Shown piece after piece: positions 12,245 through 37,509 of a stretch of DNA of 37,509 nt. This DNA is from Myxococcales bacterium (GTDB lineage: Bacteria > Myxococcota_A > Polyangia > Fen-1088), in NCBI GenBank assembly GCA_003158735.1, contig PMLB01000125.1, positions 22,877 to 60,385 of the forward strand, given 5' to 3'. The stretch's first letter is position 1. The number at the start of each line of letters is the position of its first letter. Below the pieces are notes generated by a model. That model was not told the origin of the DNA. It was given only the letters and a program-made list of their open reading frames with translations, and made no database searches. Both the position numbers and the translations under genes were made by a program.

Positions 12245-12731
12245 GAGATCCCTCGACTGTCGCAGCCCATGATACACGACGGGCGAGCGGAACGGATCAA
12301 TCGATGCCGATGGCCGTCACGGAAAGCCAGCCACGCTCAGAACCTACGGGAGTCGCACAGCGCCTTCCACGCGCCCGGGGCGTTCATGGCCCGGTCGTGC
12401 TCGGCTTCTCACCGCGTATCATAGACACCCCGGAATGTCCCTGGGTTCCCCATCTCCCGGCTGGGACATCAAATCCACGCTAGAAAGCCTCGGTAGGCAG
12501 GACGCGGATGCAGCCCAAGATCCGCGTGTGGTCACGGCGCACGACCTGGATCGCCCACTTGGGGCGTAGCCGCGCGGCGAAATAGCGCAAGGCCAGACTC
12601 GGCTCGTTGTCCAAATGATCATCGAAAATAGTCGCGACTCCTTTCGATACCAATAGAAGCTTCGGGCCGCCCACCCACATTTCCCCAGTGGTGACACCGC
12701 TGTCGTGCAAACCCCTGAAGGAAGAGGCTCC

Positions 12732-14342
12732 ATGAACCACCATTGCGTCGGCAAGATACTCCTGGGTCTATTTGCGATGCTGCCGCTCCTGGTCGCCGGA
12801 GGATGCGACTCGTCTACGTCGCCATCGCCCGGGCTCTTAGGCGGAGCCAGTGGCGGGACTCCAGAAACCGGCGGTGCGCCGGGAGCGGCAGGACACACGG
12901 CTGCTTCATCTCCCGGAACGGGCGGCGCGAATCCCGCAACCGGCGGCGCGCCGGGAATTGCGGGCGATACGGGGGCCGCTGGCGCCGCTGCTGGTGCCGG
13001 TTCGGAGGGCGGGATCGGCCCGGGTGGCGCAATTGACTCCGGTGGTGTGACGACCGAGGGTGGCGCGACGGAATCTGGCGGCAAGAGCGCGGGCGGGACC
13101 AGCGCTGGCGGCAAGACGACGGGCTCAGCCGGCGCGACAGGCAGCTCGGGTGGTGCGAAGAGCTCCGGTGGTGTGACTACCTCGGGTGGTGCCACGCCCG
13201 CCGGTGGCGTGACGGGTTCTGGCGGTGCCGGTGGCAAGACCACAGGTGGAACCGCTGCGGCCGGCAGTTCCGGATCGGCCGGCGCGACCGCCACGGGTGG
13301 TTCGAGGCCAGCCGGCGGAACGACGACCAACGGCGGTACGAAGGCGACTGGCGGTACGACGTCCGCCGGCGGTACGACAGCGACCGGCGGTTCGACGATT
13401 GTCATCAACCCCGGTCAGTGCGACGCAACCACGACGCCGGTCGCCAGGCACGGACAACTCAAGGTCGTGGGGAACAGAATCGTAAACCAGTGCGGCAGGC
13501 CGGTCCAGCTAGCGGGAATGTCGATGTACGACTGGTCGCAGCAGGGGCGGCAGTTCTACAACGCAGATGCGGTCAAGAACCTGGCCGGGACAGGAACGGG
13601 ACAGAAGAAGTGCGCGATACTTCGCGTTCCGCTTCTACCCACCAACTATCCTAGCCAAATGGCTCGGGTGAAGACCGTGATGGACGCCTGCATCGCCAAT
13701 GGTATCTACTGCATGCCCAACTGGCATGTGGTTGGCGCCAATGCCAACGCGACCAATGCGTCCGCGTTCTATGTGGAGCTGGCGAATGCCTACGGCAACA
13801 CCCCCAACATTATCTATGAGCCTTGGAACGAGCCGACAACCACCTGGCCCACCATCAAAACCTATCACGAGACCGTTATCGCGGCAGTCCGACCCATTGA
13901 CCCCGACAACATCTTCATGCTCGGCAACCCCCAATGGGATCAGCGCCCGGATCAAGCCTGTGCCTCCCCGATCACCGACACGACGAACCTGGTCTACGTC
14001 TTCCACTTCTATGCGAATACCCACAAGCTCGCCGGCTTCCAACCCAATATTGATAAATGTTTGAACGCAGGCTTTGCCGTCTTCGCGAGCGAGTACGGCG
14101 GAGTCTCATCCAATGGGAACGGCACCTTCAATGTGACGGAAATGAACAATTGGTGGACCTATTTGGATAAGAACCTCATCGGTTCTACCAACTGGGCGGT
14201 CGAGACCAATGGGGAGACGTCCTCTGTTTTCGTGAAGACTGCAAGCGCAACCGGCCCGTGGCCCGATTCCGATATTACAGACTCGGGCAACAATGTCTTT
14301 CCCTACATAGCGAAGACGTACGACCTCACGATGTCACAGTAG
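12732..14342 (+). CDS. Lipoprotein GH5 endoglucanase (subfamily 2-like) with a long Gly/Thr/Ser linker
   Basis: Lipobox LVAGGC, then about 200 aa of G/T/S/A linker. Catalytic domain has HGQLKVVG, IIYEPWNEP (acid/base), FHFYA and FASEYG (nucleophile). GAAGAGG RBS. Confidence 0.9.
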   Translation: MNHHCVGKILLGLFAMLPLLVAGGCDSSTSPSPGLLGGASGGTPETGGAPGAAGHTAASSPGTGGANPATGGAPGIAGDTGAAGAAAGAGSEGGIGPGGAIDSGGVTTEGGATESGGKSAGGTSAGGKTTGSAGATGSSGGAKSSGGVTTSGGATPAGGVTGSGGAGGKTTGGTAAAGSSGSAGATATGGSRPAGGTTTNGGTKATGGTTSAGGTTATGGSTIVINPGQCDATTTPVARHGQLKVVGNRIVNQCGRPVQLAGMSMYDWSQQGRQFYNADAVKNLAGTGTGQKKCAILRVPLLPTNYPSQMARVKTVMDACIANGIYCMPNWHVVGANANATNASAFYVELANAYGNTPNIIYEPWNEPTTTWPTIKTYHETVIAAVRPIDPDNIFMLGNPQWDQRPDQACASPITDTTNLVYVFHFYANTHKLAGFQPNIDKCLNAGFAVFASEYGGVSSNGNGTFNVTEMNNWWTYLDKNLIGSTNWAVETNGETSSVFVKTASATGPWPDSDITDSGNNVFPYIAKTYDLTMSQ

Positions 14343-18959: not shown

Positions 18960-18980
18960 CAAACGACGTTGGCCTCTTTC

Positions 18981-20767: not shown

Positions 20768-20782
20768 AGACGGCCGGCCCTG

Positions 20783-21646: not shown

Positions 21647-21674
21647 TCTGTAAGGTCTGGCGCGGCTGCGCTAC
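21647..21674 (+). promoter_or_regulatory. Candidate ECF-sigma promoter (module 1, target copy): TGTAAG-N16-CTAC
   Basis: TCTGTAAGGT-N11-GCGCTAC starts immediately after the upstream stop and ends 9 nt before ATG 21684. Confidence 0.7.
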
Positions 21675-21683
21675 TGGAGCGAC

Positions 21684-23882
21684 ATGACAACCAATAACTT
21701 GTTTCGTGTGATGGCGACGGTCCTTTGCTTCACTGCCGCGTGCAAGGGCGATTTCGCAGCCGGAATTACTGGCAGCGGCAAAGACGGCTCCGCACGAGAG
21801 ACGGGCGCCTTGCAAGACGGCGGGAATCCGAACGCACAAGAGGCTGCACCTCCGAGCAGCACTGGCTCGGTTTCCTGCGACCCATTCCAACCGACCACCA
21901 AACCCATCACGCTTACCAATGTGATTGGCGTTGGCCAGGACACGGACGGGACCCTGTATGTCGTCGATCAACCGCAGCCCGGCGGTGAGCGCGTATTCGT
22001 CTCGTCGGGCGCCACGCTGCAGCGCCAGCGCATTGCCGGATCGGGGATCGATGGCTACAGCTACACCTTCTCCATCAGTGATCACATTCCGCCGTTCACC
22101 CTCAGACTGGACACGAATACCGCGGGTCCCACAGCCATGGGCGTGCTGCTGGGAACGACAGACGGCAAGACCTTCACCATCGGCCAGCAGGGCAACGTTC
22201 TCACGCTGGTTTCCGCCTCCCAGATCGCTGCCATGCCCGTCGCTAACCTTCCCGCAGAAACCATCGTCGAATGCGATGCAACCATTCCCGACGGACGCGT
22301 TTTGTTGGTGGTTCGTCCTCGCGATGACTGGACTCTGGAAGATTTGCGTGTGTTCTTCGGCACCCAGGGCGACCTGATCGAGCGACCCGTGGATCACGTG
22401 GATCGGCTTATGGGAGGTGATGGGACCTTCGTCTACTTCACGATCGACGGTGTGGCGGCCTCCGCTACCTACCCGCTCACCCTGACCATTGGCACCACTT
22501 CGTTCCCCTTGACCTTGGTGCTAACGGATTCCCCGCCCGCTGGAGAAAGCTACTTCTGTCTCGGGAATCCATCTCCTGATGGTGGCGCTGATGCTTGGGT
22601 GCCGCCCGCAGACGGGCCGTCGTGCCGCGCGCCTTCGCCTGATTATGGGCCGACGTCGGTCTTCCCGTTCCTCCCCGATGGCACCCCGGCGGCAACCACC
22701 ACCTGCCCCGCGGCGTGCGGAGACTCGGCGTGGCCACCGGGTTTTTCGTCGTTTCCCAACATCGACATTGCGCTTCCCTACGGATCGTGCGCGCCTGGCA
22801 CTCCCTCATGCTCGACAGGTGCGACGGTTCCGTGTGCCTGTGCCCAGGGAACGGGGGGACCCGTGCACGGCTTCAACTGTAGCTGCGAGGGTGGCACCTG
22901 GATCTGTGGTATCCGTACGGCCGGTGGGGCGATGTGTATGCCGTGTCCGGACGCTGGCGTGAGTGATGGCTTACCAAGCGGAGACGGCGCGAGCAAGCCT
23001 GACGGGTTGAATCTCACCGGGCTGACAGCGATGACACTCACCGTGACCTGGATCCCGCGGACGTCTGACCCCCCCGGTGCGTGCCACACCGATACCAAGA
23101 ACGTCTATTCCTTGGACATTCAGACTCGGGTGCTCAACTGGGAGCATTGTGCAGTCGATCCCAACACGGCAGCCGCCTACCGCAAGACCGAGACCCAGAC
23201 ACTCACAGGCTACGAGGTGACGGCCGCGCGGATGCTGCTCGCCTTCCTGTCGACAAGCAACCGGACCCAATGTGGGGCCGACGCGGATACCGAAACCCTT
23301 GACCTGACGTTTCCAGACCGGGTCCAAAAATACCAAGACGACTTCTATGCCTGCAACCCGCCACTCGACGGTCGAACCTATATCGCCAACATCACATGGA
23401 TCAGAGAATGGTTGGGCCAGTTGGGCCAGAATATGAATCCGCTTCCCAGCAGTTTCGTGAGCCTGTCGGTGACGTCCGATCTCAACCCCTTTGCCAGCGA
23501 CACAGCGATGACGGCCGCGACAGCGGCGTGCGGAGATGCTGTCTACCCCACGTACGATGTCACCGCGGCAACCAAGAAGCTCAGCTGGTCGACCTGCGTA
23601 TCCAGTTCGACTGGCTACAAGCTGCAGACCGGCAATCGAGTCCTGAGTCAAAGCGAATTCGCGAGTGTCATGCAAAGCTGGTCGGCAATTCAACCCGGCG
23701 CAACTGGAGACTGCTCCACGCCGCGCACCTCAAAGGAGATGGTGCTCACGACGGCGCCGAATGTGCCTTCGGCTTACTACCTGAACGATCTCGCTGTCTG
23801 CAGCCTCTCCAGCTACAACGGCTCCATGCCCGTTGTCGGGTTGGATGACTTCTCGGCGCTGCTTGTGTCGTTGGCTCACTAA
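21684..23882 (+). CDS. Multidomain Cys-rich lipoprotein of unknown function
   Basis: Lipobox FTAAC, a beta-rich N-domain, a Cys-rich middle, and two tandem ~140-aa four-Cys domains at the C-terminus. GGAG RBS. Confidence 0.75.
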   Translation: MTTNNLFRVMATVLCFTAACKGDFAAGITGSGKDGSARETGALQDGGNPNAQEAAPPSSTGSVSCDPFQPTTKPITLTNVIGVGQDTDGTLYVVDQPQPGGERVFVSSGATLQRQRIAGSGIDGYSYTFSISDHIPPFTLRLDTNTAGPTAMGVLLGTTDGKTFTIGQQGNVLTLVSASQIAAMPVANLPAETIVECDATIPDGRVLLVVRPRDDWTLEDLRVFFGTQGDLIERPVDHVDRLMGGDGTFVYFTIDGVAASATYPLTLTIGTTSFPLTLVLTDSPPAGESYFCLGNPSPDGGADAWVPPADGPSCRAPSPDYGPTSVFPFLPDGTPAATTTCPAACGDSAWPPGFSSFPNIDIALPYGSCAPGTPSCSTGATVPCACAQGTGGPVHGFNCSCEGGTWICGIRTAGGAMCMPCPDAGVSDGLPSGDGASKPDGLNLTGLTAMTLTVTWIPRTSDPPGACHTDTKNVYSLDIQTRVLNWEHCAVDPNTAAAYRKTETQTLTGYEVTAARMLLAFLSTSNRTQCGADADTETLDLTFPDRVQKYQDDFYACNPPLDGRTYIANITWIREWLGQLGQNMNPLPSSFVSLSVTSDLNPFASDTAMTAATAACGDAVYPTYDVTAATKKLSWSTCVSSSTGYKLQTGNRVLSQSEFASVMQSWSAIQPGATGDCSTPRTSKEMVLTTAPNVPSAYYLNDLAVCSLSSYNGSMPVVGLDDFSALLVSLAH

Positions 23883-24972: not shown

Positions 24973-27900
24973 CTACTTTTGGACGTAGATGATCTTCTTG
25001 CACGACGAGGTGCAAATACCATCGACGCCATTCTTGCTTCCGCTGTCGCACTCCTCGGGGCCGTTGGGATAACCATCGCCACAGTGGGGGCCCAACTTGC
25101 ATTGCGGAGTGCAGCCACCGTATGAGCCGTCGTTCTTGCCGTCGTCGCACTCCTCGTTTCCATTCACGATGCCGTCGCCGCAGTGAGGGGCGAAGACGCA
25201 ACTCGGGGCGCAGCCACCGTACTCGCCGTTGTTGTTGAGCGACCCGTCGTCACATTCTTCGGGCGGCTCGATCAAACCGTCGCCGCACCCACCTGGCAGA
25301 CGGCACGCGTCGGTGCAATTGGGATCGTTCGACATGGTGGGTTCGCATTCTTCCCCGTAGTCCGTGTCAATATTACCGTCGCCGCACCTGGGAGCCAAGC
25401 TGCAGTCGCTCTTGCAGGTTCCGTAGCTGCCGTCGTTGACGCCGTCGTCACATGCCTCGTCGCCATTCGTGATGCCGTCGCCGCAACGCCCGCCGCGCTT
25501 GCAGTTCGACGTACAGCCACCATACACAGCGTTGGGATCGCTGCTGGTTGCGTTCTTAGCGCCGTCGTCGCACTCCTCATCGAAGTCGGTTTGCACCACG
25601 CCATCGCCACATCGTGCGGGCAGCTTGCACCCTGGGGCGCAGCCCTTGGCTGAGCCATAGTCGTCGCTGTTGATGCCGTTGTCGCACTCCTCGCCGTCAC
25701 TGACCACGCCGTCGCCGCAATAGGGTCCCCACTTGCACTGCGAGGTACAGCCGGTGTACGCGGGTTTGTCGTTGGGACCCGGGCAGCTCGCGGGAGCTGT
25801 GCCGGTCCCGTCGCCGCAGTCGCACTCTTCCCCGCCCGTCACCACGCCGTCGCCGCAGCGAGGCTGGCAGGCGGATCGGGTCGTCGTGAAACCACTTAGG
25901 GTGAGCTGGTAGTTCGACTCGGGCGGGTGCCGGTCAGCGCCGAAGATCGCGATCTCGTAGACCTTGCCGGTGACCAGCCCCAGCGGGACGGTGCGCACGC
26001 GGAAATCATCCCCGTCCTTGGCCGTCGGAGGCAGGGGGGTAGTGTTGGTAGGCGAACAGGCGGCTGAGCCAGCGGTGACCCCAGTGATGTTTCCTGTTGC
26101 GTCGAGGCAGCCACCTTCCGTGACACTGGCGTTGCCGCCGGTTAGGTCGCTGACCGTCACTTTTCCAGGCAACTGCTGGTGGACGCCGCCGAGATCGAGG
26201 ACCAGAACGCCATTGATGAAGATGAAGAGATCGTCGTCGCCGTAGAAACTGAGACTGATGCCTGCGGCACCGTTGTAGACGAAGTAGTAGCGCGCCTCAT
26301 CAGTGAAGTAATTGTCATGCTTGACGCCGGGAGTATTTGCGACCCAGCAGCCATTGCTCAGCGGATTCTGGTTTGGGCAATCCGCCTGGACCACGCGCGG
26401 TGGGAAGAAATACTGGTCGCCTTGGCAGGTGGCCCAGATGGCAACGCCACTGCTATGGTTCCAGTAGGGCCATAGGTCACATAGCGTGACCTGGCTGGGA
26501 TTCAGCGGGTCGAGGGGGTAGAAGCCATTGTCCGGGCCAGCTAGATGCGTCTTGCTGGCGTACTGGTAGACATTTCCGCCGATGCTGGTCATTTCGAGAA
26601 CGTCTGTGAAGGTCTTGTTGACCGTGTTGTCATCGTTGAACCACTGCTTGAAGCTGGCGGCATCTTTGAATGCGGGTGTCGTCCCCAACCAAACCGGGCC
26701 GCCCGGGGTGCTCTGGGTATAGCGGACCAGTGTGCCGGCAGAAACGCCAGCGTTGCCGGTCACGATGACAGCCGTGCCGATATTTCCGCCCAAATAGCCG
26801 CCAGCCCCGTTGGAAAGAGGACTGTCGTTGCCGGCCTGGGTGTAGCCGCTGGGGATGTGGAGCGCAGCATTGCCGATGTTCCAGTCACTGAACTGGCAAG
26901 CGCAGGTCGTCGTGGTACCGGGCTGCGGCTTGCCGTTCAACAGATTCGCAGCCACGATTCCCCAACAACGTGCGGTCGAGTCGTTGCCCTTGGAAGGACC
27001 GCCCGAGTTGGGAACACAGATGGTCGTGGGCGAAGTCGAGGGCGATTTCTTCGTGCCCAGGAAAAAGAAGTCCGGGTGCCCGCCGGGAGAGACGTTTTCC
27101 GGCTGGAAGTCACGGTAGGTGATGGGGAGTTCGAGGCATTGTCCTGAGCCCGATTTGCACGTCGAGGAGTCCTGGGCGGTCGCAGGCGGGCAAGCGAAGC
27201 CACCTTCAACCTTGCACTTCGACGAACAACCATCGAGGTCCACCAAGTTTCCATCGTCGCAATCTTCGCCTGGATCGAGGTTTCCGTCGCCGCAGGCCGA
27301 GGTACAGGCCTGGGTCTTGCCCGTCGTGGGGTCCTGGCAGCTCGGCTCCTTGGTGCAAGTCTTGGAGCAGCCCTTGCCGTCGCCATAGAAGAGCCCGTTT
27401 ACGGCCTTGCATCCGGTTGGCAGATTGTTCGGGTCAATGCCGCAGTCGCACAGCTCGCTCTTCTCCACAATTCCGTTGCCACACTTGGCCGTTGTGCAAG
27501 TCTGTCCCGCCGTCGGACAGTCAGCGCCGGGCTCGATCTGGCAGGTGCTGGAGCAGCCATCGCCACTCGTGGTGTTGCCGTCGTCGCACTGTTCGCCTTT
27601 GAGGACCTTGCCGTCTCCGCACTTGGCCGTGCACGCCTTGCCAACCACCCGACACTGGAAACCAGTCTCGACCGTCTTACAATCGCTCGAGCAACCATCG
27701 CCGCTGACCGTGTTGCCGTCGTCGCACTGTTCGCTCCCTTCGAGCGCGCCATTGCCGCACTTGACGATCGGGCAGACGCACAACTGGCCCGGGGTACAAA
27801 CGCAGCCCGCGCCCTTCATCTTGCAGTCGGCCGAACAGCCGTCGCCATCCTTCATGTTGCCGTCGTCGCACACTTCGCCAATCGAAAGCTGGACAACGCC

Positions 27901-28599
27901 ATCACCACATCGTGCGTCCGGCTTGCAGGGAGCGCCTGGCGTCGGGCAGCTCCAACCGGCCTCGACCTGACAAACGCTGCTGCAGCCATCGCCGCTGTTG
28001 CTGTTGCCGTCGTCGCACTTTTCGCCCGATTCGATACGCTTGTTGCCACACTGGGAAACCAGGGTGCAAGGTTGTCCGGGGACACATTTGTAGCGGGGGT
28101 CCTGCACGGTGCAGGTAGAATTGCAGCCGTCGTTGTCGAGAGTGTTGCCATCGTCGCAGACCTCACCCGCGCCGACGACTTTGTCGCCACAGATGACCAG
28201 TCGCTGGCAGGCCCCCGCGGGCGGACATTTCCAGTGGGGCTCGACCTTGCAGGCACCATTGCACCCATCGCCGGGCAAGGCGTTTCCGTCGTCACACTCC
28301 TCGATGCCATTCTGATTGTTGATTCCATCGCCGCAGGCCTCAGGATACTCGGCCTTGCAGCCCAGAGTGCTGTCGCTGTTGCAGACCCCAGAGCCGCTCG
28401 TCGTCGTCGTGCCGCCGGACGAGGAGGCGATGGTCGAGATGATGTTTCCACCGAGCGCTCCGGCCGCGCCAGAATTCCCACCTCCCACGCCTCCCCCACC
28501 GCCTCGCGCACCTCCGTTGTTTTCTACCTCCGAGCTGTTACAGGCAGCTGCCGCCAACACAAAAAGGAACATTGCATGGCCGGTGTGGGCTGTATTCAT
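24973..28599 (-). CDS. Large lipoprotein with myxobacterial Cys-rich repeats (DUF4215/Myxo_disulph type) and a central fibro-slime (PA14-like) domain
   Basis: Lipobox LAAAAC. I count 8 CG(D/N)x..E.CD repeats before and 8 after a central domain containing [14 protein letters not shown]...[23 protein letters not shown]. Confidence 0.88.
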   Translation of the reverse strand: [1208 protein letters not shown]

Positions 28600-28938: not shown

Positions 28939-30360
28939 TTACCTCAGCCACCGCCGCAAGACGACCCACCGACAGCCGCGAACTACAGTGTCATGAAACT
29001 GCCACACGATGAAGACGTAGAACACCGGCTCCAAGAAGAATTTGAAGCGGTGGTTTTCGCCCTGCTCGCATAAGATGGAAATCGCAAAAATGTAGAACGC
29101 CGGCAATAGCATTGCCACTCTGCAGGCGTAGTCCTTCTCCCTCCGCCCTTGCGCAAGCCATATCACACCCGCCAAAGACAAGAGAACAATCAAGACTGGC
29201 CCAGAGAAGATCAAGTCGTAGACGGACTTCCACGGAAGCAGCTCGATGTGCTTGCGCGGGGAGTAGGTGCTCGACGGACGCCAGTAGATCTTGAGGTTGT
29301 TGTAGTAGGCACTGAGAAGGACCGCCACAGGAGCTGTCGTGAGGTAGGTCTTGTATTCACTCTCAAGCTGCCTATCGAACTCTACGTAGCAGAGCCTATT
29401 GTAGTTGAGGCTGCCGTCCAGCTTGTTCTTCCGCGTGAGGACTCTTGGCAAAGCACTGGGCAATTCTCCGTCTGGGTCAACCTCGTAGGGCCAGGTGTAC
29501 TTCATGACTCCAGCGGAACGGACCAGATTGAGTCCGGTAAAGGTGGATGTGCTGAGGAGCCCAAACTGGCCGTATTGCTTCGCCACGTACGACCCACAGA
29601 TTCCGCCAGTTATCAGCAAGAAAAGCACCACCGTGCGCCACGGCACCTTCAACAAGTATAGAGAAACAGCCATAACCAAGAGAAAGGGGAGTTGAAAGAG
29701 CGACCTGAAGAAGAACAACAATACCGACGAAGCGGTGACCGCAAAGATGGAGGGACAGCCGCGTCTCAGTTTCCACAAGGAATAGTACATCCACAGAACA
29801 AGAACGCTGGACAGCAATGTGGTATCCAATAGTGTTGAATACACCAGGGCGGCGGGATGGAGCAGGAACAAGAGGGAGGCAAGAAGGGCAATTGTCTTTC
29901 CCACCAGGCCTGACAGCCAACGGAACATGAGCAGGCCGCACACGCCGTAGAGGATTGACCACACAAGATACAGGGCGTCGTCCACCTGCTTGAGAGCGGC
30001 GTGTATGTCCAGGGAGGGCCAGAGATGGACGAGAATGGCCCTGGCGAGGTCGAACCCCGGAGGCTGAATGTGAATATGGGTGAGTGATTCGAGGGGCGAG
30101 TCGCGGAGGTCCAGTATCGACACGGTCTGCATGAGGGTCTCGGACGAAAACCACTCGCGTTGGTGACCGTCGGTCAAATAGGGTTGGGCCTGATGTCGCA
30201 AGGCCACTTGAAACAGGAGGCCGAAGATCAGAATGGCAGCGCCAGCGAGGGGAAGCTTCCTTGCCTTGTCGATGATGGAGCGCAAACTGGCCTTGCCAAT
30301 CTCGCGACTGAGGCGACTGGTGTCGCGGGAACCTGCTCCTGGTGACTCGGAAGGGACCAC
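28939..30360 (-). CDS. Polytopic membrane protein, GT-C fold (ArnT/PMT-like) glycosyltransferase candidate
   Basis: Roughly ten TM stretches, HIQPPG in the first loop, and ENHRFKFFLEP before the last TM. Visibly more AT-rich than its neighbours. The start codon is uncertain. Confidence 0.55.
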   Translation of the reverse strand: MVPSESPGAGSRDTSRLSREIGKASLRSIIDKARKLPLAGAAILIFGLLFQVALRHQAQPYLTDGHQREWFSSETLMQTVSILDLRDSPLESLTHIHIQPPGFDLARAILVHLWPSLDIHAALKQVDDALYLVWSILYGVCGLLMFRWLSGLVGKTIALLASLLFLLHPAALVYSTLLDTTLLSSVLVLWMYYSLWKLRRGCPSIFAVTASSVLLFFFRSLFQLPFLLVMAVSLYLLKVPWRTVVLFLLITGGICGSYVAKQYGQFGLLSTSTFTGLNLVRSAGVMKYTWPYEVDPDGELPSALPRVLTRKNKLDGSLNYNRLCYVEFDRQLESEYKTYLTTAPVAVLLSAYYNNLKIYWRPSSTYSPRKHIELLPWKSVYDLIFSGPVLIVLLSLAGVIWLAQGRREKDYACRVAMLLPAFYIFAISILCEQGENHRFKFFLEPVFYVFIVWQFHDTVVRGCRWVVLRRWLR

Positions 30361-30480
30361 GGCGCGGACTCTATCCTATGATGGCGTGGGCGAGTTGGTA
30401 GTTTGTTGGGACGCTTTCCCCACGCGCACCCCGGCGGTTCGACCACGTACATTTCGACTTGCTATCTGCCCATACGAGAG

Positions 30481-31698
30481 TCAGCGGGTGCAGCCTGGCC
30501 ACCAGCAAGGAACCGTGCGGCTCCAATCGGCTATCGCTCGCCAGCGCGGCGTATCGTCCTCGACGGTTTCCAGCAGGCCGTACACGCTGCCGTCGCCGCC
30601 GCGAACATCGACGTAGTGGTGAAAGAGCGTGCCACCCAGTGCTTTCCAGCGGCTCAGCATGTCTGCGTACACCTGCTGCATGCGCGGATGCCGCGCCACC
30701 TGGCGGCGGAACTCGGCCGTCGCGCCAGTCTGGTTGTATCCCAAGTCGATACCCATCGAATACGCGGTGAACACCAGGCCGTGCGATTGAGCCAGATCCA
30801 AGTCCGCCGCCACATCCGCGGCCATGTTGGCCGTCACGTCGGCAGCCAGCAGATCGACCGCCTGGTCGACGCCTGCCGCGCCCTGCGATTCCAGCGTTGT
30901 CCAGCTATCAACGTTGCCACTGAAGAATCGGCTGACGGCGTACTCGTCGAAGCCGTGTTGCCAACAGACCTGGTTGCCTTCGTTCACCCACAAGGGACAT
31001 TCGATCGCTTGCTGTCCGACACCGCTGTTTCCGGCCTGGGCCACCACGACGCAACGGACACGATGGCGTCCTGTCGCACCGAAGACCTCGTTCTTGAAGA
31101 TGTCGCAGGCCTGCGCCAGGCGCATGCCCGCCCACTCCGCCGCGCACCAGTCCGTCACGTTCCAGCGGGCTTGGCATTGGGCAAGCGCATATTGGGCGCG
31201 GCCATTCCAGTATTCATCGCCGATCTCGATGCGCGCAATCAGCCCCGGATCCAGATTGTCCCGTAAGTATTCCGCAAGGCCGCGCAAGTAACCATCCGTG
31301 GCTTGGGCAGGAATGCTGAACCAGCAGTCGACCTGCGCGCGGTTGCAGATCGCGACCAGAACCTCGATGGGCGCGCCCCGGTCGGAGTCCAACCAGTTGT
31401 CGGCTAGCTGGGTCCGCGTGTTCCACTCGGTGACCGATGCCGAATCCAGGGTGTCGCCCCATCGGATGCTGCGCATCTGCCCTAGCTTTTCAAGATAGAG
31501 CGGATTGAAGGCCGATCCGTCGGCCAGTCCTGCGGCGGTGCGGTTGGTTCCAAGGTAGTTGTCGCCGTCGCGCACCCACAGCCAGGTGCCGTCCACGCCA
31601 GCCGAGCTTTTGTCCGCGCCCATGCGAGCCACGTAGAGATCGCCGCTGCACGCCGCGAAAGCGAGCAACGCGAGCGCAACCAACCAACGCGCGTGCAC
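30481..31698 (-). CDS. Lipoprotein, clan GH-A-like glycoside hydrolase homologue with a degenerate active site (putative pseudoenzyme)
   Basis: Lipobox FAAC. Collinear with 34320-36089 (ICNRAQVDCWFSIP vs LCNRAHVDYWINVP; LDPGL vs LDPSL). It has IEIGDEYWN in place of IEYSNEVWN and AYSMG in place of SYEGG. Confidence 0.75.
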   Translation of the reverse strand: MHARWLVALALLAFAACSGDLYVARMGADKSSAGVDGTWLWVRDGDNYLGTNRTAAGLADGSAFNPLYLEKLGQMRSIRWGDTLDSASVTEWNTRTQLADNWLDSDRGAPIEVLVAICNRAQVDCWFSIPAQATDGYLRGLAEYLRDNLDPGLIARIEIGDEYWNGRAQYALAQCQARWNVTDWCAAEWAGMRLAQACDIFKNEVFGATGRHRVRCVVVAQAGNSGVGQQAIECPLWVNEGNQVCWQHGFDEYAVSRFFSGNVDSWTTLESQGAAGVDQAVDLLAADVTANMAADVAADLDLAQSHGLVFTAYSMGIDLGYNQTGATAEFRRQVARHPRMQQVYADMLSRWKALGGTLFHHYVDVRGGDGSVYGLLETVEDDTPRWRAIADWSRTVPCWWPGCTR

Positions 31699-31703
31699 CA
31701 GGC

Positions 31704-32525
31704 CTACCGTCCTCGCAACGCCTGACGAGCCTTGCTGGCGAAGTTACCCTGCGGAAAACGCGAGATGATCTGCCCGAGATCGGAGCGTGCGCCCGCACTG
31801 TCGCCCAAGCGTGATCGACAGGACGCGCGTCCCCACAGCGCCCGTTCCTCCAGCGCATCGCCAGAGCCGTCAAGGCCCGAGCCGAGATCAGCAACGGCCT
31901 GGTTGCAGCGGCCCACTGCACCGCGAAGCTCACCACGCAGCACGGCCAGCTCGCGTGCCCGCGGAAGTTCCGTCAACTGCGTCCGGTCGAGGATCTCAAG
32001 TGCGTGGACGCGATCATCCAGCTCCAGAAGCGCATCGATGCGTGCCAGGGTTGCTTCGCGCGAGAGGGTTCCGTTCGGGAATCGCTTGCCGTACTCGTCG
32101 AGCGCGGACAGCGCCGACCGTGCGTCGTGTTGTTGCCGCAGAAGCTGGAGTGCGGCGGTCAGCAGACGCGATTCCTCGGCGATGCTGCTGGGAACCGGCT
32201 CCACGGCGAGCACCGGGTTGCGCGCAGGCGCCGCTGGTTGTGGCGGCGTGGTCAACCGGGCGACACGGCCCCGCAACAGCACCGTGGCAGCAACAGCACC
32301 CGACACCGCGACCAGCAGGCCTGCGGCCAGCGCCAGGCGCAACATGCGCATTCCTTGGCGTCTGCGCGAGCCGTGCAGTTTGTCTGCCACCCGAGACAGC
32401 AGCTGGGGATCGCCTGTCGGCACCATGGCTGCCTGCCGTATCAGATCGCCGGCCCGCTGCTCGAGCGGCGGACTCGTTGGGTCGTGGTCGCTCCAATGCT
32501 CGTGAATCGGGCTGCTGTCGTTCAT
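31704..32525 (-). CDS. Single-TM, C-terminal TPR protein; putative anti-sigma factor (module 2)
   Basis: ATGA-coupled to the sigma gene. TM LALAAGLLVAVSGAVAATVLL, then EESRLLTAALQLL...ALSALDEYGKRFPNGTLSREA...RFPQGNFA. Paralogue of 19556-20767. Confidence 0.7.
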   Translation of the reverse strand: MNDSSPIHEHWSDHDPTSPPLEQRAGDLIRQAAMVPTGDPQLLSRVADKLHGSRRRQGMRMLRLALAAGLLVAVSGAVAATVLLRGRVARLTTPPQPAAPARNPVLAVEPVPSSIAEESRLLTAALQLLRQQHDARSALSALDEYGKRFPNGTLSREATLARIDALLELDDRVHALEILDRTQLTELPRARELAVLRGELRGAVGRCNQAVADLGSGLDGSGDALEERALWGRASCRSRLGDSAGARSDLGQIISRFPQGNFASKARQALRGR

Positions 32526-33088
32526 GGGGCCTCCCTCCTCTCGATGCGCTCGAGCTCGCGCAGAAACTGGGCCCGTGCTCGGCGCAGTCGCACCCAGATT
32601 GTGGCCAACTTCATTCCCGTCAGCTTCGCGACATCCTCGCCCGACATCGACTCCATTTCGAACAGAATCAGCACGCTCCGATACTTCTCGTCCATCCTGT
32701 CCAGGATCCGGTAGACGAGCTCGACCGACTGCTGGCGCTCGATCGACTCGACCGGGCTGGTCGTCGAGGAATTGAGGGCACGTCCAGCTTCCTCGGCGCG
32801 GTGCAAACCGAGCCAGCGCAACTTGCGGTCTCTGCGCCGCCGGTCAAACACGATGCGCTCGGTGATACGGTACAGCCAGGTCGTTATCTTGGCATCGCCG
32901 CGAAATTCATGCAGCCGGCGCTGAACCACCATGAAGACCTCATGGACCATGTCTTCAATGTCGGAATGCGGCCCGGCCAGCCGCGCAATCCAGTGCATCA
33001 CATCGGGCGCATGGACTCGGTAGATTCCGTCGAGGTCGAGCGGAGCCACGTACTCGTTCGCTGCCACAGTGGACTCGGCGCAGTTCAT
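32522..33088 (-). CDS. ECF-family sigma-70 factor (module 2)
   Basis: IYRVHA...DIEDMVHEVF...TTWLYRI and MDEKYRSVLILFEME..SGEDVA...ATIWVRLRRAR. ATG 33088 is chosen because the promoter motif lies at 33101-33126. ATG 33130 is the alternative. Confidence 0.92.
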   Translation of the reverse strand: MNCAESTVAANEYVAPLDLDGIYRVHAPDVMHWIARLAGPHSDIEDMVHEVFMVVQRRLHEFRGDAKITTWLYRITERIVFDRRRRDRKLRWLGLHRAEEAGRALNSSTTSPVESIERQQSVELVYRILDRMDEKYRSVLILFEMESMSGEDVAKLTGMKLATIWVRLRRARAQFLRELERIERREAP

Positions 33089-33100
33089 TCCGCCAGTCTC

Positions 33101-33126
33101 GTGTCGGTCGAGTTCGGAACCTTTCA
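33101..33126 (-). promoter_or_regulatory. Candidate ECF-sigma promoter (module 2, autoregulatory copy): TGAAAG-N16-ACAC
   Basis: The minus strand reads TGAAAG gttccgaactcGACcg ACAC, directly after the stop of 33127-34137. It matches 34275-34300. Confidence 0.65.
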
Positions 33127-34137
33127 TCATAAACGTCCTAGGCTTGCACCCAGGATCACATTGATGTGCAGGGCCGGCAACTCGTAGCCCATGGACGGGA
33201 TGCCTTCGATTCGCAGCGTCGTGCGATGCGGCCAGCCTGAGGCGGCGATTTCCAGCCAAAATGCGTGTCGGCGACCGCAGAGCAGCGCACGTACACCGGC
33301 CCCGGCGCCGACGTCCATACCGAAGTCGCTGAGATCGTTGGGATAGCCTGACCCAGCCGCGACTGCGGCAGCCAGCAACGCCTCGGCGTGCAGGTCGATG
33401 CGCAAACGCCCCCCGCCAGCGCGAAAACGCGGCCCAGCTTGAAATTCGGCTCGCGTCCAACGCGCGTTGCCCAGGCCGATCGGCGACGTGCGCAGCCAGT
33501 CAACTTGAAGGGCCGCTCGCAAACCCCAGCGCCAACCAGCCGGAGAGCCCGTGCCTTGCAAGGCCAGTGTCGGCGCAAGGAACGACGCCCACGACAGGCC
33601 AGCCCCAGCGCCAAGGTCGAAGACTGCCGACGGTGGAAGAAACGGCGGTGCAGGTGGGGGCAGCGGATGTGGCGGTGGTGGCGGTGGCGGCGGCAACTCT
33701 GGCGGCGGTGGCGCCGGCGGCGGCTCTTGGCGCGGGCTGGGAGAGTGAGGCGGGGGGAGTCGTGGCGGGGGCAACAAGTGGATGGGCGGAGATTGACGAT
33801 TGAGCTCGGGCGAAGGAACCAGCGCCGGCCTGAACTCGGCCTCCCACGCCGCGACTACGGCGGCGACCGCTGCAGCGAGATCCCGACACGACGCCGAGGC
33901 CGCGAGGTGGCGTTCTCCGAGCAACCCACCGTCATCGCGCCGCAACTCGATCCTGATTGTCTCACCCTCGGTCGACAACACCGCACGATCCGGCGACGTG
34001 CCCTCGGCGGCGTCAGGAAGTAGCCGCCGCAGTCTTTCGGCGACCTCAGCGGGATCAGGACAGGTAGCCGTTCCCGAGACCGTCACCATGGGATGCGCCA
34101 GCAGCAGCACCAGCAGGGTCTGGGCGATCACGACCAC
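33127..34137 (-). CDS. Exported protein with a Cys pair, poly-Pro linker and beta-strand-rich C-terminus; possible small outer-membrane barrel (module 2)
   Basis: TLLVLLLAHP signal-like start, TCPD...ASCRDLAAAVAAVVAAW, a poly-Pro linker, and strands ending INVILGASLGRL. The start is placed at GTG 34137 (or 34131) by alignment with 20783-21646. Confidence 0.6.
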   Translation of the reverse strand: MVVIAQTLLVLLLAHPMVTVSGTATCPDPAEVAERLRRLLPDAAEGTSPDRAVLSTEGETIRIELRRDDGGLLGERHLAASASCRDLAAAVAAVVAAWEAEFRPALVPSPELNRQSPPIHLLPPPRLPPPHSPSPRQEPPPAPPPPELPPPPPPPPHPLPPPAPPFLPPSAVFDLGAGAGLSWASFLAPTLALQGTGSPAGWRWGLRAALQVDWLRTSPIGLGNARWTRAEFQAGPRFRAGGGRLRIDLHAEALLAAAVAAGSGYPNDLSDFGMDVGAGAGVRALLCGRRHAFWLEIAASGWPHRTTLRIEGIPSMGYELPALHINVILGASLGRL

Positions 34138-34274
34138 CCCGTGGGTCGCCGAACCGTCGGCCAGTGAGCTGCTTCTTCCACGTCTCAGAGTTAGCGCGCA
34201 CAGGCCGGCACGGTCAACGGGTGAAGCACAAGGTCGGCCGAGACGGGCCCAACGCATCGGCCCATCAAGAAAGG

Positions 34275-34300
34275 TGAAAGTTTTCTCACCTGACAAACAC
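34275..34300 (+). promoter_or_regulatory. Candidate ECF-sigma promoter (module 2, target copy): TGAAAG-N16-ACAC
   Basis: TGAAAG ttttctcacctGACaa ACAC, 19 nt before ATG 34320. It is overlapped by the inverted repeat AGGTGA...TCACCT (34272-34291). Confidence 0.65.
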
Positions 34301-34319
34301 TGGCAGCCAAGGAGCCACA

Positions 34320-36089
34320 ATGATCGCGACAAGAACTTCCCGTCTGGCCACGCTGATTGGGTTGGGCCTGGTCCTGGGTTGCAGTTCCCCCGGAGGCGGT
34401 GTTTCCGGATCAGGAGGCACCACAGGATCTGGCGGCAAACCGGGCACTGGCGGCACATCGGACGCTGGAGGCGTCCAGGGTTCGGGCGGCACCGCCAGCA
34501 GCGGTGGAATAGTCAACGGCGCCTCAACTGGTAGCAGCGGAGCGACGGCGACAGGCGGTGAGACAACTAGCATTGGTGGCACGACAGATACAGGTGGCGC
34601 GACGACTGGTAGTGGCGGCGGCGTGAGCAGCGGTGGCACGGCTGGCGGCGGTGGAGCGACGGCGACAGGCGGCTCCACGAATGGCAGCGGCGGACGCACG
34701 GGCTCAGGTGGCGCGACAACGGGTAGCGGCGGACGCGCCGGCTCAGGTGGCCCCACGACTGGCAGTGGCGGACGCTCGGGTTCAGGTGGCGCGACGATTA
34801 GCAGTGGCGGACGCACAGGCTCAGGTGGCACCACGTTGGCCAGCGGGGGAACGCAAGGGTCCGGGGGACAAGTCACGGGCGGGCGTACCGGCTCGGGAGG
34901 TGTGCAGGGCACCGGCGGCACGCCAGGCACCGGCGGCTCGACCTCCACGGGCGGCACGCTAGGCACCGGCGGCTCGTCAAGCACCGGCGGCTCGACCTCC
35001 ACGGGCGATCTTGTCAACCCCGCTCCCGGCAGCAAGTTCTTCATCGGCGCGAACTTTTGGAACGAGGGATGGGAACCAGCGAGCGACTTCTTCTCCAGCA
35101 ACGTCAACTGGGCAACGACAACCAACCCATGGAACCCCACGCTGCTGACCGACCTTGCGCCCTATGCACACGTTCTGCGGTTCATGGACTGGAACAGAAC
35201 CAACGACCAAGTCGCTGGCAGTTGGGCAGCGCGCGCCCAGCCCAACGTGGCGCCGGGAGATCGCGGCGTGGCCTACGAATGGCAGATTGATCTGTGCAAC
35301 CGCGCTCACGTCGACTACTGGATCAACGTTCCCACGCTTGCCGACGATGACCACGTGACCAAGCTCGCGCAATTGATTCAGCAGAAATTGGATCCAAGTC
35401 TGCGCATCTACATCGAGTACTCGAACGAAGTGTGGAACGGCGGGTTCCCGCAAGCGACCTACGCCGACAACCAAGGCGTGGCGGCGAACATGCCCGGCAT
35501 GAATCAGTGGTACAAAGGGTGGGCCTGGTATGTGTACCGCGCGGTGCAGATCTTCCAGGGTTTCGAGGCTGTGTTCGGCAAGAACAGCCCACGCCTGGTC
35601 AAAGTCCTCTCAGGCCAGGCCGGCTACACGGGCGATGCGAGCAATCCGGCGCCGGTCTGCGCATGGCATCTGCAGTCGCTGGCCGACAAGACAGTCAACC
35701 CACAGAGCGAAACCATCAACGCTTACGCGATTGCGCCGTACTTCGGAGGCACAGACACCACCGCGCTCGCCAGTGATATCCCGGATGAAGCGACGCTGGT
35801 GCAGAATCACGTCGCGTGTTTGAAGGGCACGGGCATTCCCCTGATTAGTTACGAGGGAGGGCAGGACTCGTACGCGGCGACCAGTTGCACCGCGGTCGCT
35901 ACCGATCCGGCGATGACCAACTTGTATGTCACATATTTGAACTCCATGATGTCGGCGGGACTGTTGGGCCCGTTCATGCAGTACACGCATGTCGGCAATT
36001 GCTGGGGGCTGAAGATGGCGACCGGCGATAGCAATACCAAGGCGCCAAAGTACCAAGGCGTGCTCAATTGGCTGGCCGCTCACCCGTAG
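34320..36089 (+). CDS. Lipoprotein glycoside hydrolase, clan GH-A-like (family not assignable by eye), with a long Gly/Thr/Ser linker
   Basis: Lipobox LVLGC and about 205 aa of linker. Motifs LRFMDW, IEYSNEVWN (Glu codon 35427-35429), AIAPYFG and ISYEGGQ (Glu codon 35853-35855). AAGGAG RBS. Confidence 0.8.
   Translation: MIATRTSRLATLIGLGLVLGCSSPGGGVSGSGGTTGSGGKPGTGGTSDAGGVQGSGGTASSGGIVNGASTGSSGATATGGETTSIGGTTDTGGATTGSGGGVSSGGTAGGGGATATGGSTNGSGGRTGSGGATTGSGGRAGSGGPTTGSGGRSGSGGATISSGGRTGSGGTTLASGGTQGSGGQVTGGRTGSGGVQGTGGTPGTGGSTSTGGTLGTGGSSSTGGSTSTGDLVNPAPGSKFFIGANFWNEGWEPASDFFSSNVNWATTTNPWNPTLLTDLAPYAHVLRFMDWNRTNDQVAGSWAARAQPNVAPGDRGVAYEWQIDLCNRAHVDYWINVPTLADDDHVTKLAQLIQQKLDPSLRIYIEYSNEVWNGGFPQATYADNQGVAANMPGMNQWYKGWAWYVYRAVQIFQGFEAVFGKNSPRLVKVLSGQAGYTGDASNPAPVCAWHLQSLADKTVNPQSETINAYAIAPYFGGTDTTALASDIPDEATLVQNHVACLKGTGIPLISYEGGQDSYAATSCTAVATDPAMTNLYVTYLNSMMSAGLLGPFMQYTHVGNCWGLKMATGDSNTKAPKYQGVLNWLAAHP
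34683..34838 (+). repeat. 4 x 39-bp intragenic tandem repeat encoding GSGGRxGSGGxTx
   Basis: Units start at 34683, 34722, 34761 and 34800. They are in frame, within the linker. Confidence 0.85.
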
Positions 36090-36132: not shown

Positions 36133-37509
36133 ATGATCGCAGCAAAGACGTCCCGTTCGGCCACGCTGATTGGTTTGTGCCTGGTCCTGGGTTGTAGTTC
36201 TGGCGGGGGCGGTGGTGTTTCGGGATTGGGGGGCACCACCGCAGGGTCGGGCGGCACGAATGAGTCGGGTGGCAAGCAAGGACCTGGTGGCGCACCTGAC
36301 ACTGGTGGCGTCCAGAACCCGGGCGGCACCACAGGCAGCGGCGGCTCGCCTGGCAGCGGCGGTGCGACCGCTTCAGGTGGCGCGACAACTGGCGGCGGTG
36401 GTGCGACGGCTTCAGGTGGCGCGACAATGGGCAGCGGTGGTGTAACGGCTTCAGGTGGTGCAACGTCGGCCAGCGGTGGAACCCAGGGCTCCGGAGGACA
36501 GGGCACGGCTGGGCGTAATGGCGCGGGCGGCACGACGGGCGCAGGCGGCACACAAGGCGCGGGCGGTGCGACGGCTTCAGGTGGCACAACCGCCGGCACT
36601 GGTGGACGCGCAGGTTCAGGTGGTGCAACGTCGGCCAGCGGAGGAACGCAAGGCTCCGGAGGACAGGGCACGGCTGGGCGCTCTGGCACGGGCGGTGCGA
36701 CGGGCACAGGCGGGCGTACTGGCACGGGCGGTGCGACGGGCACAGGCGGCACACAAAGCACGGGCGGAGCGACGACCGGCAGCGGCGGGGCGCAGGGCTC
36801 GGGCGGGACAACGGGAAGCGCGACCCGTCCCAGCTACAACATGGGAACGGGATTTTTCGTGCTGAACGGAAAGCTCTACGACGCCAACGGCGTGGAGTTC
36901 AGGATCCGGGGCGTCGACCGGAACCACTACGACATGGATGCGCCAGGAATCCCGAAGACGCACGCCAACACGGAGCGCACGGTGCTTTTCTTCAACGGGG
37001 AATGGGGCAGCACCATGACCCGCAACGTCCAGGTCATGCAGCAAGACATGATCAACAATCACATCGTTCCCATGCCAGGCAACTGGGAGGGAACCTGTGA
37101 CGAGAGTACGGCGACCCTCACCACCATCGTCGACCGCTGGGTCGCTCAGGTGTCCACCTACAAGGCGCTGGACAAGTACATGATCCTCAACATCGCCAAC
37201 GAGTGGGGCCCCAGCGACAGCACCGTTTGGCGCGACTCATACGTCACCGCCATCCAGCGCCTGCGTACCGCCGGGTACACCTGCACCATCTCCGTCGACT
37301 CGGGAGGCTGCGGACAGGACAACGCCGACCTGGCGAAGTACGCACAGGCCGTATTCGACGCGGACCCACAGAAGAATGTCATCTTCGACCAGCACATCTA
37401 CGGCAACTGGGGCCTAGACGCCCAGAAGCAGAGCTGGCAGCAGGGCCTCATCGCCGGGTTCGACGCACTGGTGGCGACGGGCCTTCCGGTGATCATCGGT
37501 GAGTTCGGC
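36133..37509 (+). CDS. Lipoprotein GH5 (subfamily 8-like beta-mannanase) with a long Gly/Thr linker; runs off the window end
   Basis: Not in the ORF track because it has no stop. Manual translation: MIAAKTSRSATLIGLCLVLGC, about 210 aa of linker, then GFFVLNGKLYDANGVEFRIRGV, ANTER, ILNIANEWG, VDSGGCGQD, FDQHIYG and LPVIIGEFG. GAGGAG RBS. Confidence 0.88.
   Translation, partial: MIAAKTSRSATLIGLCLVLGCSSGGGGGVSGLGGTTAGSGGTNESGGKQGPGGAPDTGGVQNPGGTTGSGGSPGSGGATASGGATTGGGGATASGGATMGSGGVTASGGATSASGGTQGSGGQGTAGRNGAGGTTGAGGTQGAGGATASGGTTAGTGGRAGSGGATSASGGTQGSGGQGTAGRSGTGGATGTGGRTGTGGATGTGGTQSTGGATTGSGGAQGSGGTTGSATRPSYNMGTGFFVLNGKLYDANGVEFRIRGVDRNHYDMDAPGIPKTHANTERTVLFFNGEWGSTMTRNVQVMQQDMINNHIVPMPGNWEGTCDESTATLTTIVDRWVAQVSTYKALDKYMILNIANEWGPSDSTVWRDSYVTAIQRLRTAGYTCTISVDSGGCGQDNADLAKYAQAVFDADPQKNVIFDQHIYGNWGLDAQKQSWQQGLIAGFDALVATGLPVIIGEFG
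36451..36680 (+). repeat. 65-bp intragenic direct repeat (165-bp period) in the linker
   Basis: 36451-36515 versus 36616-36680, with three synonymous differences. Encodes SGGATSASGGTQGSGGQGTAG. Confidence 0.85.

Follow-up and report, generated by a model that had tools for sequence, protein, structure and literature searches.

A gene at the end of a compact sigma/anti-sigma factor unit in a Myxococcales bacterium encodes a probable lipoprotein whose predicted glycosidase-type barrel carries serine where its relatives almost invariably carry glutamate. This candidate gene (30481..31698, minus strand) lies in a 37,509-nucleotide stretch of GenBank assembly GCA_003158735.1 (contig PMLB01000125.1, positions 22,877 to 60,385), referred to here as the window, in whose numbering all positions are given unless stated otherwise. 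From its open reading frame (ORF), AlphaFold model, fold matches and family homology, the product is predicted to be a lipoprotein with a (beta/alpha)8 barrel of the glycoside hydrolase (GH) clan GH-A type and with Ser at the position of the conserved Glu of strand beta7. Our leading, though still tentative, reading is that the protein binds glycans without hydrolysing them and thereby acts as a modulator of the anti-sigma factor encoded next to it. Catalytically altered glycosidase homologues acting as binders or sensors are already known, and few bacterial cases have been worked out. The candidate represents a clean natural experiment, with a Glu-keeping relative at about 50% identity and an altered site fixed under strong purifying selection, and assaying it together with its active neighbour would assign a first function to an uncharted GH-A-like family. 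Furthermore, the four-gene sigma/anti-sigma unit, which neighbours active glycanases in a myxobacterium abundant in peat, could provide a model for substrate sensing by Gram-negative polymer degraders.

The candidate gene and its protein family

The ORF is unbroken, begins with GTG and encodes 405 amino acids. Its BLASTP alignment with the 589-residue product of 34320-36089 (plus strand; E = 2e-19, 26% identity, 96/368 positions) juxtaposes four pairs of motifs, namely IRWGDT/LRFMDW, IGDEYWN/YSNEVWN, AVSRFF/AIAPYF and AYSMG/SYEGG. The four motif changes, and the codon positions of the Ser and Glu, had been proposed in the initial annotation and are exact. Ser314 (TCG, 30757..30759, minus strand) replaces the near-invariant Glu of the Y-E-G-G motif and falls within model strand 309-317, as placed by the codon read, the family alignment and the model. 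By the same lines of evidence, Asp161-Glu162 (GAT GAA, 31213..31218, minus strand; Glu162 at 31213-31215 and Asp161 at 31216-31218) replaces the family Asn-Glu right after model strand 155-159, and the codons and family alignment place Arg257-Phe258 (30925..30930, minus strand) where the sixth strand ends, in lieu of the family Pro/Gly-Tyr. Turning a Glu codon into TCG requires at least two base changes, and TCG is also the Ser314 codon of the orthologues in genomes G043 and G035. The two genes of the window had been described as paralogues; they are indeed homologous, but at 26% identity 34320-36089 is a distant family member rather than a paralogue of recent origin. Among relatives that keep the Glu, the one nearest to the candidate is the metagenomic protein P0002 (49-52% identity; match to the candidate with E = 1.6e-116).

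The N-terminus carries a lipobox, L-A-F-A-A-C, whose Cys17 (TGC, 31648..31650, minus strand; read from the translation) is preceded by a hydrophobic signal-peptide stretch; both features, called by eye from the N-terminal sequence, are retained in the G043 and G035 orthologues and in the cluster members. Only a short tether follows the lipobox of the candidate, whereas Gly/Ser/Thr-rich linkers of about 200 amino acids follow the lipoboxes of the three other GHs of the window (12705-14342, 34320-36089 and 36133-37509). The earlier description of an intact ORF with a lipobox and without the linker is thus borne out, and, because it has no long linker, the candidate would sit close to the membrane, unlike the three active GHs.

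An exhaustive HMMER search recovered 4407 cluster representatives of the family at E<=1e-3, of which 123 also pass a threshold of E<=1e-30. The 34320-36089 protein has 2192 relatives at E<=1e-3, which come from Polyangia and are termed 'hypothetical protein' where named; the Y-E-G-G pattern occurs in 112/120 of its relatives according to a crude regular-expression tally that is blurred by fragments and motif variants. The family consensus motifs are R-F-M-D-W, S-N-E-V-W-N, A-P-Y-F and Y-E-G-G. Neither the candidate nor the 34320-36089 protein has a sequence match in Pfam, NCBIfam or the PDB, ten canonical family members had no Pfam match at E<=10, and a 64-sequence family profile matched nothing relevant in the PDB. 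Family members are named in their sources only as 'hypothetical', 'calcium-binding' or 'cadherin-like'. Among the 45 long members scanned, 17 contain RTX repeats, and others carry TIG, PKD, Calx-beta, PA14, CBM9 or SLH modules. In both plasmid loci viewed, from Roseobacter and Shinella, the family member lies within an exopolysaccharide/capsule biosynthesis cluster. GH148, as described (PMC5725463), has other motifs and a CBM4 insertion, and was rejected as the identity of the family.

Conservation was counted by column in a MAFFT alignment of the listed representatives, comprising 154 domain copies, or 152 after the same-lineage rows P0001, P0003 and P0005 were set aside. In these 152 other copies, Glu occupies columns 314 and 162 in 148 copies each, Tyr occupies column 258 in 148, Asn column 161 in 146, Met column 81 in 132 and Trp column 83 in 131. 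Forty-eight columns are conserved at >=80%; the candidate keeps 34 of them and departs at 14, compared with 10 departures in P0002, 9 in the 34320-36089 protein and 4 in the median member. The departures of the candidate that are not common to P0002 (M81G, L117I, N161D, L232I, Y258F, E314S and G315M) are mostly at strand ends, and the clade-specific M81G, N161D, Y258F, E314S and G315M fall within the strand-end motifs, in agreement with the initial view that the changes are concentrated at the active site. Residues that probably line the cleft are otherwise retained: R79, W92, R95, E112, N119, W126, E158, E162, W164, N165, R193, R213, Y313 and W351.

Further members of the family have lost one or both catalytic Glu residues (P0007 domain 1, P0011 domain 1, P0014 domain 2, P0041 and P0108), and several of these site-degenerate members are one copy of a tandem pair. 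P0007 domain 1 reads A-Y-S-A-G, an independent Glu-to-Ser change.

Predicted fold and position of the changed residues

The AlphaFold model of the candidate, built from an alignment of 64 sequences (A1), has a mean predicted local distance difference test score (pLDDT) of 85.6 and a predicted template modelling score (pTM) of 0.86, with low confidence only in residues 1-46; a single-sequence model (pLDDT 46) was set aside. Foldseek comparison of the model with the PDB returned GH51, GH79 and GH5 entries at E of about 1e-6. In a VIA-align search of 48,161 representatives, the top match was GH51 1pz2 (Z 22.7, root-mean-square deviation (rmsd) 3.3, 288 residues aligned), followed by members of GH79, GH39, GH30, GH164, GH42, GH5, GH44, GH10, GH53, GH26 and GH158; all families in the top rows are TIM-barrel glycosidases. 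A second look with the same program gave GH51 6sxu (Z 22.9, rmsd 3.2, 284 aligned), GH79 5bwi_B (Z 22.6) and GH39 (Z 19.6), so that the nearest GH51 and GH79 structures align over 282-284 residues at rmsd 3.1-3.2. Sequence identity to the matched structures is 7-15%. We take the matched families (GH51, GH79, GH39 and others) to belong to clan GH-A, following CAZy, and the model thus supports the earlier assignment of a clan GH-A-type barrel.

The model contains strands 77-80, 124-129, 155-159, 214-221, 250-259, 309-317 and 359-365; one further strand, strand 1, presumably lies within the low-confidence N-terminus, and the strand numbering depends on it. On this count, strand 2 terminates at Arg79, strand 4 is followed by Asp161-Glu162, strand 6 terminates at Phe258 and strand 7 contains Ser314. 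Carboxylates at strands 4 and 7 form the classical 4/7 arrangement of clan GH-A. The initial prediction that the Ser occupies the strand-7 nucleophile column is therefore consistent with the seventh strand of the model and with the Glu found there in nearly all relatives. Profile comparison (hhalign) of the family with GH51 sequences from the genomes of its relatives placed D161-E162 on the G-N-E motif, with a weak overall match (Prob 1.2%, E 0.044); strand 7 was not resolved when the C-terminal halves were compared alone (Prob 0.5%), and a GH5 alignment from the relatives' genomes gave no usable match (Prob 0.07%).

Direction of change and selection

In a FastTree phylogeny of the barrel region, the candidate groups with P0001 and with its orthologues from G043 and G035 in one clade (support 1.0), which is nested among relatives with the Asn-Glu, Tyr and Glu configuration, namely P0002 (0.997), P0040 (0.991) and P0022 (0.942). 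Judged from this tree, the Asp-Glu/Phe/Ser state is derived within Asn-Glu/Tyr/Glu-keeping relatives. The stem branch of the clade (0.559) is similar in length to the P0002 branch (0.449).

Close full-length matches occur in 3 of the 89 genomes of the taxonomic family (G000; G043, 96% identical; and G035, 88% identical and from another genus), and a fourth, G041, holds a 41-residue fragment of an orthologue. A sample of 401 genomes of the class yielded no close Glu-keeping orthologue; outside the clade, its best match shared 38% identity with P0002. All orthologues found, in G043, G035 and the cluster members, retain D-E, F and S; the orthologues were thus found to keep Ser, not Glu. Within the P0001 cluster, which has 84 members, T-A-Y-S-M-G is present in 15/15 members listed and E-I-G-D-E-Y-W-N in all ten listed members that span beta4. 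Retention extends to the signal peptide, the lipobox and C-W-W-P-G-C at the C-terminus. Within the clade, 13 of the 14 positions at which the candidate departs from the family consensus are fixed, and variation affects 2/48 family-conserved columns against 45/359 positions overall (one-sided Fisher p 0.04).

Ratios of nonsynonymous to synonymous substitution rates (dN/dS) among the orthologues are far from 1, as the initial annotation would have them if the gene is functional. By the NG86 method they are 0.087 for G000-G043, 0.145 for G000-G035 and 0.102 for G043-G035, and by YN00 they are 0.075, 0.109 and 0.082 for the same pairs; the corresponding NG86 dS values are 0.23, 0.46 and 0.54, with upper dS values of 0.54-0.67. 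For the neighbouring anti-sigma gene the NG86 ratios are 0.284, 0.367 and 0.309. As far as substitution ratios tell, the candidate is under strong purifying selection. One metagenomic relative, P0003 (286 amino acids, 68% identity over 58% of the candidate), is seemingly frame-shifted in two places, yet contains T-A-Y-S-M-G; sequencing error, or a copy that is broken in one population, may account for the apparent frame shifts.

Genomic context

The candidate is the last of four tightly packed genes on the minus strand. The unit begins with orf443 (33127..34458), which encodes a secreted Pro-rich protein of no assigned family and whose true start is probably downstream of the listed start, the latter overlapping 34320-36089 on the opposite strand. 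The orf443 stop overlaps the ATG of a gene for an extracytoplasmic function (ECF)-type sigma factor (32522..33130, start at 33130; Pfam Sigma70_r2 1.1e-12 and Sigma70_r4_2 3e-11), and the stop of the latter in turn overlaps the start of the next gene (ATGA). This third gene (31704..32525) encodes a single-pass anti-sigma-like protein with a C-terminal periplasmic part resembling tetratricopeptide repeat (TPR) and YfiO proteins (Pfam TPR_6 1.9e-6, YfiO 1.1e-4; orthologue alignment A2), and its stop lies 5 bp before the GTG of the candidate. Divergent from the operon is 34320..36089 (plus strand), which BLASTP and the family alignment identify as a canonical family member with N-E, Y and Y-E-G-G intact and with the linker of about 200 amino acids.

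A multi-pass membrane protein of 473 amino acids without a Pfam match is encoded 120 bp downstream of the candidate (28939..30360, minus strand). It matches PMT_2/GT39/ArnT clusters of the protein atlas with a protein-language feature score of 0.99, and is probably a glycosyltransferase of the GT-C type (PMT_2/ArnT-like), the atlas match being a lead rather than a test. A promoter/terminator scan revealed no terminator-like site in the 120-bp gap between the two genes and nothing decisive elsewhere, and a simple regular expression for ECF-like promoters had no match in six upstream regions.

The arrangement is partly preserved in the related genomes. At the G035 locus, the divergent canonical member and the order orf443, sigma, anti-sigma, candidate are retained, and the membrane protein gene is not adjacent. 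At the G043 locus, from the same genus, the anti-sigma gene, the candidate, the membrane protein gene and a DUF4215 gene are retained; homology to the window stops at 33566, and that contig has no 34320-36089 orthologue. The window itself contains a second, paralogous cassette (18969-23882, plus strand), made up of an ECF sigma factor (18969-19559, 52% identical to that of the candidate operon), a TPR anti-sigma protein (19556-20767) whose TPR part is 48% identical, a secreted protein resembling orf443 (20783-21646, E 9e-5, an orf443 paralogue) and a lipoprotein. Another family member with an N-terminal beta-sandwich part and with a C-terminal C-W-W-P-G-C as in the candidate is found in genome G225 (locus L033, contig G225:C139), where it (43-1563 of that contig) accompanies genes for an ECF sigma factor (1647-2216) and a FecR-type anti-sigma factor (1804-2769). 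The family may have become linked to ECF regulators more than once.

Proposed function and alternative explanations

In the reading that we tentatively favour, the membrane-tethered candidate would still have the substrate cleft known from retaining glycosidases of the clan GH-A type and, because the beta7 Glu is Ser, would be unable to form the covalent glycosyl-enzyme intermediate. It would bind the glycan cut by its active relatives, or an oligosaccharide released from that glycan, and signal its occupancy to the anti-sigma factor encoded 5 bp upstream, through the periplasmic TPR domain of that protein, by which the co-encoded ECF sigma factor would be tuned. The loss of hydrolysis, the glycan binding, the anti-sigma contact and the regulatory output are all steps that we infer. 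In another GH-A family, a Glu-to-Ala change at either catalytic Glu is reported to have abolished activity (PMC5725463). A sensing or modulating role is our best single guess because the gene stands at the end of a packed sigma/anti-sigma unit and beside active glycanases and because the tether is short, although operon position as a pointer to a sensor is suggestive only. In 3 of 4 runs, RNA-library contigs overlap parts of the candidate (30469-30843 and 31002-31262 in X15; 30806-30956 and 31432-31599 in X16; 30792-30942 in X17), and an X17 contig (31540-31886) spans the anti-sigma/candidate junction. The fourth run, X18, had no contig on the candidate among those listed, and contigs cannot show absence.

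Several observations weigh against this reading. The G043 locus has a clean 664-bp deletion (L071, G043:C81 8141/8142, corresponding to window 32675-33338) in which the sigma factor loses residues 1-151 and orf443 its end, while the candidate and anti-sigma gene are intact; thus, the upkeep of the candidate may not depend on this sigma factor, unless the deletion arose recently or is a variant of the assembly or of the population. In the second cassette, the genes at 18969-21646 are followed by an unrelated Cys-rich lipoprotein of 732 amino acids without a Pfam match (21684-23882), and in G225 it is a canonical, Glu-keeping member that lies 84 bp upstream of the other ECF sigma and FecR-type anti-sigma genes; from these two cases, the adjacent lipoprotein could be a regulated product and not a sensor. 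No anti-sigma domain or fusion was found among the 45 long family members scanned. A pure binder would need neither the retained Glu162 nor the change of Asn161 to Asp. The identification of Ser314 with the beta7 nucleophile site, which draws on strand order, fold match and family conservation, is well supported, though short of proof. The RNA-library contigs, for their part, can stem from carried-over DNA and are no proof of transcription.

A live alternative, not raised in the initial annotation and in our view unlikely, is that the candidate is still a glycosidase and cleaves beta-linked 2-acetamido sugars (N-acetylglucosamine or N-acetylgalactosamine) by substrate assistance, using Asp161-Glu162; the acetamido group of the substrate would then act as the nucleophile, through an oxazolinium intermediate, as in GH20-type enzymes. 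The Asp-Glu pair stands right after the fourth strand, the beta7 carboxylate is absent, and D161 is the only new carboxylate among the 14 departures that is not shared with P0002 or the 34320-36089 protein; the new configuration is, moreover, fixed at 13 of 14 positions under strong purifying selection. GH20 enzymes are reported to use a conserved D-E pair, two adjacent residues at the C-terminal end of a strand of the TIM barrel, and to do without an enzyme nucleophile (PMC10570127); the resemblance to the candidate is at the level of the motif only. In addition, PgaB's C-terminal domain (GH153), a periplasmic (beta/alpha)8 domain without the expected or known catalytic motifs, was first held to be a binding module in a polysaccharide system and later proved to be an active hydrolase of another family (PMC5933820). 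This case is a precedent for hydrolysis by a barrel without recognised catalytic motifs and a caution against calling the candidate inactive from its sequence alone. Amino sugars are common in exopolysaccharide and capsule clusters of the kind that surround the relatives at both plasmid loci. It is the new Asp161 beside Glu162, the GH20 D-E chemistry and the PgaB precedent that keep this explanation under consideration. However, the H-x-G-G signature of GH20 (PMC10570127) is absent before the D-E of the candidate, where the local sequence is R-I-E-I-G-D-E, there is no GH20 sequence match and the nearest folds are GH51 and GH79; Tyr258, a possible holder of the acetamido oxygen, is now Phe; and P0013 pairs D-E with an intact Y-E-G-G, so that Asn-to-Asp occurs without loss of the nucleophile. 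A search of the literature found no described substrate-assisted, nucleophile-less switch within a GH-A-type family. In its evolutionary form, in which a clade of a two-carboxylate GH-A-type family switched to substrate-assisted catalysis through E-to-S and N-to-D changes and its Asp-Glu cleaves 2-acetamido sugars, with the sigma/anti-sigma pair perhaps controlling the enzyme or responding to it, the proposal appears rather improbable. If true, it would document a natural change of chemistry in a retaining glycosidase, with the GH20 solution recreated on a GH-A scaffold.

The candidate might also bind glycans without any part in signalling, holding, chaperoning or presenting an envelope or extracellular polysaccharide as a mere product of the sigma regulon, possibly together with the downstream GT-C-like membrane protein. 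The fold, the lost Glu and the selection speak for such a binder as they do for the sensor, and the membrane protein gene is adjacent in G043 as in the window, with nothing resembling a terminator in the gap; the retention of the candidate in G043 despite the truncated sigma gene and the different lipoprotein at the equivalent place of the paralogous cassette point in the same direction. Against this, the membrane protein gene is not adjacent in G035, where the order of sigma, anti-sigma and candidate is nonetheless kept, the gap of 5 bp that separates the candidate from the anti-sigma gene points to co-function more than to mere co-regulation, and the atlas match of the membrane protein is, as noted, a lead. 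We regard this explanation, too, as unlikely. That the gene is a decaying copy heading for loss seems very improbable: the apparent frame shifts of P0003 and the patchy distribution of the gene (3 of 89 genomes, plus the fragment) would fit, but the ORF is intact in three species genomes, dN/dS stays at 0.08-0.15 at dS up to 0.54-0.67, and the signal peptide, lipobox, C-terminal C-W-W-P-G-C and family-conserved columns are retained. The initial suggestion of repurposing rather than decay therefore holds, given the derived state, the fixed departures and the purifying selection, with that of a lectin or sensor as a putative new role.

Comparison with known systems

For the favoured sensor reading, the nearest documented parallel is the GH10 module of the anti-sigma factor RsgI6 of Clostridium thermocellum, which is reported to have very low activity, to retain binding and to serve as a polysaccharide sensor (PMC4711584). 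Like RsgI6, the candidate would combine a glycosidase-fold module of low or no activity, for which binding is predicted here, with an alternative sigma/anti-sigma pair near active glycanase genes. RsgI6 differs in that the anti-sigma factor itself bears the GH10 module as a C-terminal fusion, the sigma factor is of the sigma-I type and the host is Gram-positive (PMC4711584). In the myxobacterium, by contrast, the candidate is a separate lipoprotein gene 5 bp after a TPR-type anti-sigma gene that accompanies an ECF-type sigma factor.

In the rpoE-rseA-rseB order of Escherichia coli, the sigma and anti-sigma genes are followed by that of RseB, a periplasmic, ligand-binding partner of the anti-sigma factor. 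The candidate shares this gene order as a third gene after sigma and anti-sigma, but is not homologous to RseB, having no Pfam match at all, and differs from it in fold and presumed ligand.

The candidate has the (beta/alpha)8 barrel in common with the GH51 alpha-L-arabinofuranosidases and the GH79 beta-glucuronidases and heparanases, from which it is nevertheless far removed: identity is 9-12%, no sequence-level PDB or Pfam match emerges even with the family profile, the beta7 Glu is absent and its 405 residues include no C-terminal beta-sandwich of the GH51/GH79 kind. Engineered glycosynthases, in which the nucleophile Glu is changed to Ser, Ala or Gly, require activated fluoride donors, which are absent from nature. 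GH18 chitinase-like lectins belong to another clan, and the residue that they have lost is the acid rather than the nucleophile. Known glycosynthases and GH18 lectins still bind, and the candidate resembles both in the loss of a catalytic carboxylate from an otherwise intact cleft.

Occurrence and additional features of the window

Fourteen DNA runs from metagenomes of peat, permafrost and bioreactors contain the segment 30481-33130 nearly in full, and several of these runs may be the source of the window. Two GH5 genes complete the set of GHs with linkers of about 200 amino acids. One is at 12705..14342, and the other (36133..37509, plus strand; Pfam PF00150 4.7e-14) encodes a cellulase-family lipoprotein that is cut by the contig end, which is also the window end. 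Within the Gly/Ser/Thr-rich linker of the latter (36549-36719), 36-141 bases are missing from, or replaced in, the RNA-library contigs of two runs, which probably reflects variation in repeat length between strains. The minus strand also encodes a Cys-rich protein of 1208 amino acids with at least eight DUF4215 repeats (24973-28599; E 1.1e-63), which adjoins the membrane protein gene in G043 too. Finally, an export cluster on the minus strand (6196-12277), consisting of an ABC transporter, a C39-peptidase ABC transporter and an HlyD-like protein and resembling a bacteriocin-type exporter, adjoins the GH5 gene at 12705-14342.

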